A stretch of DNA of 64,000 nucleotides, taken from the NCBI GenBank assembly GCA_951406725.2, contig OX597819.1:65410001-65474000 (forward strand), read 5' to 3'. The notes under the pieces are model-generated. The model saw only the letters and a program-made list of their open reading frames with translations. It was not told the DNA's origin and searched no databases. Source of the DNA: Octopus vulgaris. Its lineage: Eukaryota. How positions within the stretch are numbered: position 1 is the first letter of the stretch; the number at the start of each line of letters is the position of its first letter. Both the position numbers and the translations under genes were made by a program. Shown piece by piece: positions 6,311 through 27,700 of the stretch.

Positions 6311-7122
6311 ATGACAAAGAGTCGTTTGTTTTCGGCATGGCATGAATGAATTATCATTATTTTTCTTGGTGTTCTAGTTGTTCTTGTTTGTTGTTGTTGA
6401 TCTTGCAGTTCTTGTCATTATTTTCATCTTTGTCATAATTATGAGTGGCTGAATGTAGAAGAATCTAGAAGAATCTGAAGGTTCAAGGTTTCAAACGAAG
6501 TAGGAGGAGGGAGGCATAAGAATAGTAAGGTGAGAGGGTGCAGGTCAAAAGAATGGTGGGTTTAAATGATTTCTTTTATGAATGAGTGCCTGTGTGTGTG
6601 ACTGTATATAACTGTCATAATGTGTGTATGTGTGTGTGTGAATGCGTGATTGTGTTTGTGGATGGGTAGATGTCAGAAAACTGACAGCTGTGAGGTGAGA
6701 GGTCTGTGTCTGTGTGTTCGATTGTGTTTACTGTAGAGAAAGGGAAGTAGAGAGAGAAAGGGAGGAAGAGTCGGACATGTATGCATACATGTATACATAT
6801 ATTTACATATATATAAATATGCATATATATGTGTGTATATATAAATATGTATATATATATATATATATATATATATATATATATATATATACATGCATAT
6901 ACATATATATATATATATGTGTATCTATGTATCTATCTATATATATATATATAACATAAGGGACTAAAGCCATCTGAATATGGCTAGGGACAGGGCAGGG
7001 TGGTGGGGGTGTTACTGTTGCATTTAGCCCCAGGCGAACATCGACGTCACCAGAAAGGCTCGACACCGTCACGGTGCCCTTAACCTGCAAAGGGAGGTAA
7101 TTCCCCGATGAAGCGGAAACCA

Positions 7123-7168
7123 CACACGGACCATGGTTTCAAGGTGTATTGCCTATCATCGGCGTGTG
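7123..7168 (-). ncRNA. Type I hammerhead ribozyme (CCGAUGA core variant), inverted copy
   Basis: Exact reverse complement of 7449-7494. Confidence 0.75.
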
Positions 7169-7448
7169 GTAGGCCTCCGCTTCCTCGACGAATTCTCACT
7201 CTGCAGGATTTTCTTATATAGATTTTCAAGCAAAATACATTTGCTGATTTCGAAAATCTGTTCGAAAGCAATAATAATTCAGATGGCTTTAGTCCCTTAT
7301 GTTATCGAGCAGTTACTGTCTATATCCCTTTTAGAGAATTATTATTGCTTTCGAACAGATTTTCGAAATCAGCAAATGTATTTTGCTTGAAAATCTATAT
7401 AAGAAAATCCTGCAGAGTGAGAATTCGTCGAAGAAAGCGGAGGCCTAC

Positions 7449-7494
7449 CACACGCCGATGATAGGCAATACACCTTGAAACCATGGTCCGTGTG
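7449..7494 (+). ncRNA. Type I hammerhead ribozyme (CCGAUGA core variant)
   Basis: cacacg-CCGATGA-t-agg(caataca)cct-t-GAAAC-catg-GTC-cgtgtg: 6-bp stem I, short stem II, palindromic stem III ACCATGGT, GUC cleavage site. Confidence 0.78.
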
Positions 7495-7808
7495 TGGTTT
7501 CCGCTTCATCGGGGAATTACCTCCCTTTGCAGGTTAAGGGCACCGTGACGGTGTCGAGCCTTTCTGGTGACGTCGATGTTCGCCTGGGGCTAAATGCAAC
7601 AGTAACACCCCCACCACCCTGCCCTGTCCCTAGCCATATTCAGATGGCTTTAGTCCCTTATGTTATCGAGCAGTTACTGTCTATATCCCTTTTAGAGAAT
7701 TATTATTGCTTTCGAACAGATTTTCGAAATCAGCAAATGTATTTTGCTTGAAAATCTATATAAGAAAATCCTGCAGAGTGAGAATTCGTCGAGGAAGCGG
7801 AGGCCTAC

Positions 7809-23914: not shown

Positions 23915-24010
23915 TCTTTGGACTATTCATAGTTTCGACACACTTAGGTAAACCAATTCAATTAAATTAAGTTAAATCTATTTACAACTGGCCTGTCTCA
24001 TCAGGAAAGA
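23915..24010 (-). ncRNA. Type I hammerhead ribozyme with a long loop 2
   Basis: tctttc-CTGATGA-gaca[~55 nt]tgtc-GAAAC-tatgaata-GTC-caaaga. The core is intact; the first stem I pair is mismatched in this copy. Confidence 0.75.
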
Positions 24011-24656
24011 AGCCAAGGAAAGTATATATCCACGAGGCGACAGCAGCGAAGCCTCGAGTCTATATAATCTTAATTTTCAAAATCCACCGTCACCGCGCCA
24101 TCTTCTCAGCAGCAAATATAAACTGCTGATACAATTTCAAAATTAGCCAAAAAATCATTAATTAATCAATATAAGGGTAGCAAAAAATTCAAGAAAAATT
24201 TCCCGCCATCAGAAGTCTAGTGAGAAAGAAAAATAGGCACAGACTATATAATATACATTCAACAATATTAAGGAATGGCCCTGATAGGCCATTCGACTCG
24301 CTAGAAAGAGCAGGCAAACTCAAACCGCTAAATAGTTGTAATTCTGAAACTAAAGGAGAAATAAAAACATTTATCCTTTTCATTTTTGGACTATGCATAG
24401 TTTCGACACACTTAGGTAAACCAATTCAATTAAATTAAACTAAATCTATTTACAACTGGCCTGTCTCATTTTTCTTGAATTTTTTGCTAAACTTATATTG
24501 ATTAATTAATGATTTTTTGGCTAATTTTGAAATTGTATCAGCAGTTTATATTTGCTGCTGAGAAGATGGCGCGGTGACGGTGGATTTTGAAAATTTAAAG
24601 TATATAGACTCGAGACTTCGCTGCTGTCGTCTCGTGGATATATACTTTCCTTGGCT

Positions 24657-24752
24657 TCTTTGCAGATGAGACATGCCAGTTGTAAATAGATTTAATTTAA
24701 TTTAATTGAATTGGTTTACCTAAGTGTGTCGAAACTATGCATAGTCCAAAGA
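24657..24752 (+). ncRNA. Hammerhead copy with a core mutation (CAGAUGA)
   Basis: tctttg-CAGATGA-gaca...tgtc-GAAAC-tatgcata-GTC-caaaga. Stem I and the palindromic stem III are perfect. Confidence 0.7.
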
Positions 24753-27700
24753 TGAAAAGGATAAATGTTTTTATTTCTCCTTTAGTTTCAGAATTACAAC
24801 TATTTAGCGGTTTGAGTTTGCCTGCTCTTTCTAGTGAGTTGAATGGCCTATCAGGGCCATTCCTTAATATTGTTGAATGTATATTATATAGTCTGTGACT
24901 GTTTTTCCTTTCTCACTAGACCGCTGGTGGCGAAAACTTTTTCTTGAATTTTTTGCTACCCTTATATTGATATATATACACACACACACACACACACACA
25001 CACACACACACATATATATATATATATATATATATATACATATACATACATATATATATATATATATATATATATATATATATATATATATATATATGAG
25101 TGTGTGTGTATACATACATTGATATACACACATGTGTGTGTGAGTCTGTGTACATGTATATTTATGTATATGTATAGTTTCTATAGTGAATTATTTATTA
25201 AACGAAGTCTACGTTTCAAATTTATCACATACTTTCATAAATATTTAATCTCCGCTTCAAGAAAATAATTAATAAATATTCATTATACCAAGTTGATCGG
25301 AAACGCTTATATTGGGTTCTTTTGTTACAGAATAAATACAAACGAAAATGTAACTGAAAATGACCAAGGCTGGGTGCATTCCTTCCAGCGTTGTCATTCT
25401 TAGAGTGATGTGTGAAGTCGAATTGTTCTCTGTAAACGTGATTACTTGTTCTCTGTAAACTGTCTTCAGTGAATTGATTTGTGAGAAGAGAAGTGTGACG
25501 ATGAAAGGACAGTGTAATAGAGGAGAAGTATGGAGGTAACCAGTTTACGGAGTGGATGAGTGTTGTAGGGAAAATTTATATGACAAAAGGAGACCGAGTT
25601 GGAGAAAGAAAAGAATGGTAGATCGAGAGACGTGGATAAAAGTACACAGACGATAGTGGGTGTGTGAGAGTGATAATGTAAAATTGAGGAAAATTTTACA
25701 GGCCATAAGTCTAAGTGAAAAAGTGGAATCATATAAAGATGAATATATTATAATATAAAGAATATAAAGATGAGAAACCCAAAACAGGCAAACGGCAGAT
25801 ATTATTACTAGGTTTGGCACGACTGAGTGCCCTAAATACAATTCTGTTCATGAGGGCATGGGTTGAAAACATCATTTGTAGATTTCACGAGGACACTTTG
25901 TGTTACTGTTGAGAAACGCTCCACAACTTTTCAAGAAATTTCACTTTTTCTTTTATATGACACAAAACAATCATTCAACAATCATATGTGACTTGTTTGA
26001 ACTTGTGATTGTAACTTAAATTTGGATCACAAAAAGAAATACGTGTTTCTTATGTCTGGTCTTCAATATTTCTCTGACATTTCCCTCTTTTCGCGTTATC
26101 ACACTCGGTCCTTCGATACGATTTCCACTTCGTACACAATGGCATTTCTATTGAATTGTCTGTTGTGGTGGGCATATACTGTTTGCTTCAAGCCCACTAA
26201 CTAAAATTTATGGCTAAACGATATGAAGCATTGAAGCTGTATCTATTTATTAATTTTCTGAAGGTAAGTATCGAGGGCGAAGCCTGTAAATAAATCTAAA
26301 GGAATTTCTACGTACACAAAACCTGAACGTTAAAAGAGAATGGGAAGTATGCTAAAGGATATTACGGTAGTGTTTTCTATTATTAAAGACATGGGAGATA
26401 TATACCCAACGCAGACCTTGAAACTGCTTCAAGCGCTTTAAACGTTCTTCTGCTCCTGTCGTTCTTTACTTCGCTAAGGCATGACCCAGTGGTTAGAATG
26501 GTGCACTTGCGATCGCGAGATAGTGGTTTCAAATCTCAGACCGGATGGTATGTTGTTTTCTTGAGCAAAACATTTCATCTCATATAACTCGTGGTACACT
26601 GTGCACCTGTTCAGGCAATGTTGATTTGATGGAGGGAGTGACCTAATGTAGAGCACATACACTTGATCACTGGAAATATATGATTTGTGCATGTCGTTCC
26701 GCAAAATGGCGAACACCCATACGTCATTTTCATTGGCAGGGTCCATCACACTCATATACCAACACACACACACATACGCGCACGCACACAGGCACACACA
26801 CACTCACATCACACACATACACACACACACACACATATATATATATATATATACATACAGAAAGAGAGAGGAAGAGAAAGAAAGAAAGAAAGAAAGAAAG
26901 AAAGAAAAAAAGAAAGAAAGAAAGAAAGAAAGAAAGAAAGAAAGAAAGAAAGAAAGAAAGAAAGAAAGAAAGAATAGTATGTGATGGAATCACAAGGACC
27001 TCATTGTAAGTCCCATACTTGGTGAGTGACGTTTGCGAAAAACGTGCTTTGCACTAGCGTAAACACTTACCCTCGTTCTAGAAAGTGAGGAATAACAACG
27101 GGGAAAAGTATGTATAGAGACTGATAAGGTAAGGGATGTGAAGTCATGTAACAGATCTATGTTCCAGCGATGTATGTATATGTATGAATATTGTCTGTGT
27201 ATGATTGTGTGTGAATATGTCTCTGTGTATGTATACACATCTAATAATATAAACTGATTTGATCACCTCGACAAATGGTGGATTTCGACTTTTAAGAAAT
27301 TACTATTTTGGTACGAATATTCTGGGAGTGTCGGTATATGAATATATTTAAACGAATGTACCTGAGAAAATTCATATGAACTGTGCAAGTGTGTGTGTAA
27401 GTGTGTTTGTGTGGGGTAAGGGGTGATGGTGCCGTTCTGAATGGTCATACGATGGATTATCCCTCCTTCTATATCAACCGAGCGTGAAATTCCAATAGTT
27501 TAGGCCACTCTGCTATGCACCTAAATACCTGTACTAAAACAAATACCATTGTCCTTAACAAAACAAGCTTCCTATCACTTTCACTTTCGCTATTCATTCC
27601 TCTCCATAATTCTTTAATATATTTATTTGTTTATTTATGTAATTCTATTTATTTCTCTCTCTCTCTCTCTCTCTCTCTATATATATATATATATATATAT

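Follow-up and report, generated by a model that had tools for sequence, protein, structure and literature searches.

Three non-coding hammerhead units (E1, E2, and E3) are inserted head-to-head in microsatellites of a 64,000-nt stretch of Octopus vulgaris DNA, the whole of which is referred to here as the window. They are likely non-LTR retrozymes that were copied in trans by a PLE RT and GIY-YIG endonuclease. The sample consists of these three insertions in one window, and the insertions were chosen beforehand for showing this pattern. They are new retrozyme families with a PLE footprint, a combination not found in the published literature. The sequence-only reading had described a guild of non-coding PLE passengers; the geometry, the tail, and the TA targets do fit a PLE, but the guild is largely the published non-LTR retrozymes (PMC7229834; bioRxiv 10.64898/2026.07.22.740005) and is therefore less new than had been implied. 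Tandem hammerhead units of this class were already proposed as PLE passengers.

Anatomy of the three insertions

The left arm of E1 (6951–7280, minus strand) is a 5′-truncated inverted copy of 330 nt in (TA)n, and all 330 nt match unit b plus tail without a difference. The right arm (7277–8030, plus strand) comprises 361, 360, and 33 nt, which correspond to two tandem units (7277–7637 and 7638–7997) and a tail (7998–8030) that repeats the first 33 nt of the arm. The right arm begins in the loop of the hairpin preceding the 3′ end and terminates in (GATA)n. At the head-to-head junction (7277–7280), the ATTC microhomology that had been claimed was found to be exactly 4 nt long. The left arm stops 3–4 nt before the end position of the right arm.

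The left arm of E2 (20082–20551, minus strand) bears the tail-carrying 3′ end, where a hairpin is followed by CCCT at a distance of 16 nt from the end. The right arm (20550–21060, plus strand) opens with the terminal 30–45 nt of the left arm (20550–20594; 30 nt exact, or ~45 nt with a loop variant) and its own end lies 14 nt past a second hairpin-plus-CCCT site, at a unit position ~96 nt before that of the left arm. Both arms lie in (TA)n. A complete tandem unit is absent from E2, and the unit was obtained by reconstruction as 562 nt (~567 nt with the loop variant of the right arm).

The left arm of E3 (23866–24469, minus strand) contains a 468-nt unit plus 136 nt and ends in a TA-type repeat, 170 nt before the end of the right arm. 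The right arm (24468–24971, plus strand) contains one unit (~469 nt) and a terminal redundancy of 33–35 nt, formed by 24468–24502 and 24936–24971. The two arms are ~4% different. Differences fall at four hairpin positions, three of which keep or improve pairing, and this hints weakly that the templates were two different ones.

All three insertions thus have two head-to-head arms with microsatellites on the outer sides, and the positions reported earlier were re-obtained, with unit lengths of 360, ~562–567 (reconstructed), and 468 nt. The microhomologies at the junctions of E1, E2, and E3 are ATTC, TT, and AT, respectively. The rough chance of a junction start lying 29–46 nt upstream of an end in every one of the three is 0.118 × 0.124 × 0.148, or ~0.002. 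The right arm does open with a 3′-terminal segment of the element in three of three cases, as had been stated, but the owner of that terminus differs: in E1 the two arms share it, in E2 it is that of the left arm, and in E3 that of the right. A single fixed 3′ end is seen for E1 only, because the arms of E2 and of E3 stop at different sites.

The inversion could also have arisen on a single PLE-copied template, by twin priming or by self-priming on antisense RNA, and not from two primings; this is considered quite improbable. Twin priming is known from LINE-1. It predicts that the 3′ end of one arm nearly meets the start of the other, modulo the unit, which is observed for E1 (~29 nt overlap) and E2 (30–45 nt). 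E3 does not fit, with gaps of ~135 or 165 nt and a redundancy within one arm, and the hairpin differences between its arms point weakly to two templates. For PLE junctions that are palindromes, self-priming has been put forward (PMC3846280), and another insertion in the window (61738–61976) has such a palindrome, whereas the junctions of E1–E3 are non-palindromic.

Repeat-like flanks of 20 nt were found at six of six ends; of the other positions in the window, 4.6% have such a flank on each side. The reported (TA)n or (GATA)n setting holds with one amendment: the right flank of E3 is TA followed by (CA)n. Target-site duplications are unreadable within microsatellites. Perfect simple repeat accounts for 6% of the window.

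Repair events typically show joints with microhomology and involve TA repeats. In an origin that needs no PLE enzyme, DNA repair, or template switching during replication, would have inserted and inverted satellite-like hammerhead repeats at fragile TA repeats. The joints, the TA repeats, and the simple-repeat content of the window are all compatible with such an origin. It is nonetheless very improbable, since it leaves unexplained the tail-out orientation and the 30–45-nt redundancy, each present in three of three insertions, and the common motif before the ends.

No protein is encoded by E1–E3, as judged from ORF lengths and the absence of a PLE profile match. The longest ATG-initiated ORF in the doubled units is 50–101 aa (for E2, in a 468-nt part only), and the PLE profile search of the window gave no PLE ORF adjoining any of the three. 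An LTR/PBS/PPT organization is probably lacking as well, as in non-LTR retrozymes. E1–E3 were accordingly rejected as autonomous PLEs, none having an RT plus GIY-YIG ORF inside. No match to a simple Pol III A or B box was found in the units. Circular monomers fold ~5 SD better than shuffles. The units are ~65% paired, so closeness to some hairpin is expected anyway.

The arms or tandem copies carry private differences: two in E1, three plus the loop variant in E2, and ~4% in E3. These differences, and the match to a known biological pattern, make it scarcely credible that errors of assembly at low-complexity repeats created the inverted structures, even though PLE inverted structures are difficult to assemble (PMC8557442) and the E1 junction is missing among the joints listed in the public runs described below.

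Hammerhead motifs and the E1 unit in public runs

Hammerheads were identified using a descriptor search for type I motifs with a palindromic stem III. A motif was found in both arms of E1, E2, and E3, always with its 3′ side pointing outward as had been claimed, and none of 20 shuffled windows gave one. The motifs in the right arm of E1 appear at 7449–7494 and 7809–7854 (plus strand), with predicted cuts after 7488 and 7848, respectively; that of the left arm appears at 7123–7168 (minus strand). E1 has a U4C core variant, which is weaker than the canonical core; its motif at 7449–7494 also has a U-U at the base of stem II and a palindromic stem III. Among these loci, two consecutive complete hammerheads, by which bioRxiv 10.64898/2026.07.22.740005 defines an active retrozyme, occur in the right arm of E1 alone (7455 and 7815), and in neither E2 nor E3. 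The E2 motif (20816–20871, plus strand, predicted cut after 20865; mirror copy at 20368–20423, minus strand) has a canonical core, a U-U at the base of stem II, and a palindromic stem III. The E3 motif (24657–24752, plus strand) has a long AT-rich stem II, a 12-nt palindromic stem III, and a core altered at position 4; its left-arm copy (23915–24010, minus strand) has a canonical core and stem mismatches, so that no copy of the E3 hammerhead is fully intact.

No hammerhead was matched by Rfam, whether across the window (E up to 1) or within three sub-regions (E up to 10); all that appeared were hairpin or microsatellite look-alikes. Eight of nine Xenopus retrozymes assayed in vitro failed to cleave. 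A constant spacing between hammerhead cut and element end was rejected: the six ends lie ~55–292 nt past the predicted cut. The hammerhead would therefore serve in making monomers or circles and not in setting the ends.

The E1 stretch was present in 20 of 24 rows listed, from nine studies and five organism labels; no RNA run is among the matches listed. Contigs were examined in four of those 20 runs (X1, X3, X16, and X20) using one 360-nt E1 unit as the query. The unit is abundant in run X1 (1516 contigs) and closes on itself at 360 nt in all four runs, as expected of tandem templates and of circular ones alike. Run X3 also has a closed 390-nt contig; contigs do not separate a circle from a tandem, and the RNA status of this run is a guess. 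The single low-depth contig in X16 and the single one in X20 are not taken as spread between species.

The public-run joints lend no support to a fixed junction grammar, at the low power of short contigs. A single inversion joint is listed (7701/7763, one contig), off the tail start at 7638, and the window's own E1 junction is absent among the joints listed. A microsatellite was found at none of the 12 loose ends listed (74 more exist); by eye, these 12 appear to be diverged versions of the E1 unit and not coding sequence. A drop in summed contig depth after ~7700–7720 was rejected as an end marker, as depth does not measure copy number and this is where subfamilies diverge. In the metagenome, viral, and prokaryote collections, no loci were obtained with an exact 22-nt E1 pattern, and a degenerate E2-type hammerhead pattern gave no matches in metagenomes.

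Candidate tail signal and other elements in the window

The three units had been said to share no obvious sequence. This holds by BLAST, but E2 and E3 are weakly and colinearly similar over ~300 nt up to their tails. Of 1000 dinucleotide shuffles, 2 reached their alignment score of 54, as did 7 of 1000 block shuffles, and the score restricted to the last 170 nt was reached by 43 of 1000 shuffles. The alignment puts the tail ends in register. No significant overall similarity was found for E1 with E2 (5/200 shuffles) or E1 with E3 (70/200 shuffles).

A hairpin and then CCCT, 12–16 nt before the end, is common to all three tails and was found post hoc. CCCT lies 12–16 nt ahead of five of the six ends (four of five distinct sites); the position-constrained test gave 10/5000, and 35/1500 was obtained without the position constraint. 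The motif is missing ahead of the left end of E3, the end of a decayed E3 relative, and the end of the coding PLE; in the insertion at 61738–61976, a weakly similar segment sits ~55 nt inside the end. The five-sequence alignment is too divergent for covariation tests. It is a speculative and rather doubtful proposal that several divergent retrozyme families share a hairpin-then-CCCU cis-signal marking both PLE start sites, with cDNA beginning 12–16 nt past it and cDNA that rounds a circular template being stopped or cut at the apex. If true, hairpin-CCCU would act as a transferable address tag read by PLE enzymes and would account for the PLE tail, and circular RNAs would be seen to be copied into DNA at a cut microsatellite, starting on both of its strands.

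The decayed relative of E3 (17431–17720, minus strand; local score 61, 0/500 shuffles) has a single arm and a hammerhead-like remnant, and ends at a short TA run ~90 nt short of the E3 tail end. The coding PLE (28610–30435, minus strand) is 5′-truncated and contains an RT thumb, a cysteine linker, and, at the C terminus, a GIY-YIG domain (PF01541, E 7.9e-8); the sole PLE protein match in the window is 29542–30435. It has 114 longer homologues, mostly with RT domains, a decayed hammerhead near 28680–28725, internal repeats in its 3′ region, and a 3′ end in (TA)n. As judged from these predicted domains, it shows that the enzyme class exists in this genome. Its 3′ region gave no significant alignment with the three units (scores reached by 11, 118, and 167 of 200 shuffles). 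The units were rejected as non-autonomous partners of this PLE, there being no common terminal sequence and no CCCT before the PLE end.

The units might instead be heavily 5′-truncated ends of coding PLEs, that is, pseudo-LTR modules, some locally repeated, which were dead on arrival and are not independent parasites. PLE copies are usually 5′-truncated, and their terminal repeats contain hammerheads (PMC8557442, PMC4209133); a full tandem unit is lacking in E2, and the coding PLE has its internal 3′ repeats. Such an origin is unlikely: E1 and E3 pass the unit boundary back into their own short unit, E1 closes at 360 nt in four of four runs with loose ends that look non-coding among the 12 listed, and an adjoining PLE ORF is absent at all three elements.

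Proposed insertion route and relation to known systems

Mobilization as retrozymes by a PLE protein would proceed as follows. The protein, probably a dimer, would bind multimeric or circular unit RNA and nick a TA or GATA repeat on its two strands; each nick would then prime cDNA, beginning at internal start sites. The preferred start would lie 12–16 nt past the hairpin-plus-CCCT, and look-alike or other internal sites would sometimes be used (E2 right, E3 left). The two cDNAs would extend toward each other and be joined via the 2–4 nt of microhomology, leaving the 3′ ends facing out. One cDNA would stop at the hairpin top one or two units upstream, which would correspond to the second, tail-less start site known for PLEs, and this stop would produce the 30–45-nt terminal redundancy.

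Inverted 5′-truncated copies, a 30–40-bp tail, and (TA)n targets are hallmarks of PLEs (PMC8557442), in agreement with the background given in the sequence-only reading. Direct 34-bp repeats flanking a solo unit are a described Penelope form (PMC2377424), and pLTR sequences are enough for mobilization in trans (PMC3846280). With a purified PLE protein, each of the two DNA strands is cut and extended, with a cleavage preference for ATT; two internal RNA start sites, one of them in a stem-loop, bound the tail (PMC11167929). The enzyme moving animal retrozymes has so far been argued from co-occurrence and likeness to PLE ends, and a more direct trace is left by junctions that show the inverted arm and the tail specific to PLEs. 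In the existing in vitro PLE assay, the short units could serve as minimal templates with a candidate start signal, and that assay could resolve the origin of the tail and of the head-to-head inversions.

E1–E3 resemble insertions of the endonuclease-positive PLEs Penelope, Poseidon PAc, Neptune, and Naiad (PMC8557442, PMC2377424, PMC3846280, PMC11167929) in the inverted 5′-truncated arm, partial tandems, 30–40-nt tail, direct tail repeats around the unit, AT-rich or microsatellite target, 5′-junction microhomology, and hammerhead. They differ in the absence of an ORF, a unit of 0.36–0.56 kb compared with 3–4 kb, an inversion junction at the tail start in three of three, and the hairpin-plus-CCCT common across families. 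Like non-autonomous Chlamys PLEs such as MRC1 (PMC8557442), they are likely non-coding PLE passengers that form pseudo-LTRs and head-to-tail copies. At their 3′ end the Chlamys elements are similar to an autonomous partner, and their group lacks canonical hammerheads, whereas no sequence-sharing partner of E1–E3 was found in the window.

Retrozymes resemble pLTRs according to the available part of bioRxiv 10.64898/2026.07.22.740005, which argues from co-occurrence and pLTR homology without junction analysis. The main text of PMC7229834 mentions target-site duplications and contains neither "inverted" nor "microsatellite". Head-to-head arms with tail redundancy inside microsatellites, known here from sequence alone, distinguish E1–E3 from described non-LTR retrozymes. 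For the retrozyme unit length of ~150–1000 bp, E1 (360 bp) and E3 (468 bp) provide tandem units and E2 a unit by reconstruction only. Non-coding tandem units of 360–560 bp, G+C below 50%, and high self-pairing are shared with the animal non-LTR retrozymes of these two sources, as are one type I hammerhead per unit with a palindromic stem III and coexistence with coding PLEs. The U-U at the base of stem II is also found in axolotl HHR_Amex2.

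Arm geometry of the three insertions

The three hammerhead-bearing inverted insertions E1, E2 and E3 were found where the sequence-only reading had placed them. Each consists of two head-to-head copies (arms) of a 360-, 562- or 468-nt unit, respectively, the E2 length being a reconstruction. The left arm of E1 spans 6951-7280 (minus strand), and the right arm (7277-8030, plus strand) comprises units of 361 and 360 nt followed by 33 nt that repeat the beginning of this arm. The two E1 arm ends are at most 4 nt apart in the unit, and the claimed ATTC microhomology is present at the junction. 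The left arm of E2 (20082-20551, minus) bears the terminal segment that is repeated at the start of the right arm (20550-21060, plus), the end of which falls approximately 96 nt earlier in the unit than that of the left arm. In E3, the left arm (23866-24469, minus) contains one 468-nt unit plus 136 nt, the right arm (24468-24971, plus) contains one unit plus 33-35 nt, and the left-arm end lies 170 nt earlier in the unit than the right-arm end. The terminal redundancies of 33, about 45 and about 33 nt that had been claimed were measured as 33 nt in E1, 30 nt exact in E2 (about 45 nt if a longer hairpin loop is allowed) and 33-35 nt in E3, but the arm ends differ in E2 and E3. In each insertion an arm start precedes an end by 29-46 nt; the rough chance of this in all three is about 0.002, to be read with caution since the trio had been picked for the pattern.

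The arms of one insertion differ at 0-2 positions in E1, at 3 in E2 and by about 4% in E3; that the inverted structures are an assembly artefact is extremely improbable. The claimed microsatellite placement holds, with repeat-like flanks at all six arm ends versus 4.6% of other window positions (both sides). Repair acting on the DNA would be a very unlikely source of the inversions. The flanks of E1 (6900-6950 and 8031-8110) are partly mirror images, the left being a short TATC run then TA and the right GATA.

Hammerhead motifs and relatedness of the units

Type I hammerhead motifs were located by descriptor search at 7455, 7815, 20822 and 24663 on the plus strand and at 7162, 20417 and 24004 on the minus strand. 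Stem III is palindromic or near-palindromic in every one, which is described as a mark of motifs working as dimers (PMC4209133). The strict search gave palindromic-stem matches in 0/20 shuffled windows; a looser search gave 0-2 matches per shuffle, and its two additional window matches were taken as chance. The hammerheads of E1-E3 were not detected by an Rfam search of the window. Core position 4 is C in all three E1 copies, with no other letter among the public-run variants listed; this C is slower in vitro, yet supports a viroid in vivo (PMC3088659). At its base, stem II carries a U-U pair in E1 and E2, a trait shared with an axolotl retrozyme (PMC7229834), and a lesion is present in each E3 copy. 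Self-cleavage is predicted for these hammerheads. As circular monomers, the units have folds about 5 SD better than those of shuffled sequences.

The tandem units correspond to non-LTR retrozymes, non-coding hammerhead repeats already proposed as passengers of Penelope-like elements (PLEs) in PMC7229834 and bioRxiv 10.64898/2026.07.22.740005. All features of the architecture have been described for PLEs (PMC8557442, PMC2377424, PMC3846280 and PMC8969392), and non-autonomous PLEs are likewise known. E1-E3 are real and mostly of known kind: new retrozyme families with a PLE insertion footprint. A literature search that covered retrozyme papers by main text and few subscription papers or Repbase notes gave no account of retrozymes inserted with tails and inverted arms.

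The units had been called unrelated, and BLAST between them gave no long match; E2 and E3 nevertheless give a colinear alignment of about 300 nt (score 54) in which the tail ends are in register. This score, from one of six pairs tried, was reached by 2/1000 and 7/1000 shuffles, and by 1/500 with another scoring; for the last 170 nt alone the fraction is 43/1000. Against E3, E2 was outscored by 2 of 372 real window segments, both covering a decayed E3 relative with a hammerhead-like remnant (17431-17720, minus; 0/500 shuffles). In E1-E3, a TTTCTRRTG motif appears 73-137 nt past the predicted cut, and the decayed relative has a similar site. An AT-rich, weakly E2-like piece (17111-17406, minus; 2/500) follows that relative and has a long (TA)n stretch at its end.

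Proposed insertion route

E1-E3 probably derive from retrozyme RNAs that a PLE enzyme copied in trans. Using multimeric or circular retrozyme RNA as the template, the enzyme would nick both microsatellite strands and prime from each, and the two cDNAs would join head to head via microhomology. In anole, the PLE protein, predicted to be a dimer, cuts both strands and extends both; its two internal start sites, one of them within a stem-loop, delimit the tail, and it works without hammerhead cleavage (PMC11167929).

In each unit, a hairpin followed by CCCT precedes the end that bears the 30-45-nt tail. The CCCT starts 12-16 nt ahead of 5/6 ends, the short end of E2 among them. The redundant arm of E1 and of E3 begins in or beside the loop of this hairpin, as does that of E2 by the 30-nt reading. 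The motif, found post hoc, gave 10/5000 in position-constrained and 35/1500 in unconstrained tests; it is absent before the E3 left end, the end of the decayed E3 relative and that of the coding PLE in the window. No published description was found in a search covering few subscription papers or Repbase notes. The hairpin with CCCT is a post hoc candidate for a cis start signal, the apex of which may act as a tail-less start site and also as a stop or cut point for arriving cDNA. An inversion from a single template, by twin or self-priming, is an improbable source of the arms. Twin priming is a LINE-1 process. All three arm starts lie in or adjoin an ATT, at which the anole PLE prefers to cut (PMC11167929), a weak likeness in AT-rich DNA.

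E1 in public runs and other elements of the window

The E1 stretch appears in 20 of the 24 public runs listed, and one 360-nt unit was compared with the contigs of four of these. Since 1516 contigs match in one run (X1), with related subfamilies seen, and a joint going back 360 nt is present in 4/4 runs, E1 belongs to an abundant family of short units in tandem or circular form. A second run (X3), RNA only by guess, holds a closed 390-nt E1 contig. In what is a weak test with short contigs of a high-copy repeat, the proposed insertion grammar gained no confirmation: the window junction is not among the joints listed, the sole inversion joint listed (7701/7763) lies off the tail start, and a microsatellite is found at 0 of 12 loose ends listed among 86. 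Scans of metagenome, viral and prokaryote collections with an exact 22-nt E1 pattern, and of metagenomes with a degenerate E2-type hammerhead pattern, gave 0 matches.

Matches to PLE coding sequence in the window are confined to one 5'-truncated copy (28610-30435, minus) with a cysteine linker, a C-terminal GIY-YIG domain and its 3' end in (TA)n. By the clade features given in PMC8557442 it is Neptune-like, and its nearest named animal homologue is from oyster (49% identity). The proposed guild of PLE-moved parasites stands as to the footprint, but it is largely the published class of non-LTR retrozymes. This PLE shares no sequence with the units. That E1-E3 are truncated ends of coding PLEs is unlikely. 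A decayed hammerhead lies near the end of the coding copy, and imperfect internal repeats at 29010-29310.

The window is rich in microsatellites and mobile elements, including SINEs that we take to be cephalopod-like. A non-LTR retrotransposon fragment (8754-10217, minus; 487 aa, C-terminal) lies by a (TAA)n run and has a weak zf-RVT match (E 0.0097, below the Pfam cut-off); a Mariner-type transposase fragment (PF01359, E 2.4e-23) is at 62770-63300 (plus). No hammerhead motif was detected in two old tandem repeats (60772-61300 and 51536-51999), each of two copies, with lengths of about 282 and 231 nt and 79% and 70% likeness. Adjacent imperfect palindromes (36598-36934 and 36972-37294; 79% and 82%) by TA runs are MITE-like, with no hammerhead motif. 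A 240-nt insertion (61738-61976), with a (TA)n run on either side, has weak internal similarity to the E3 tail region (1/500, one of 21 tests). It includes an 84-nt near-perfect palindrome (61894-61976), one arm consisting of the first 42 nt of its partner, which resembles palindromic PLE junctions.
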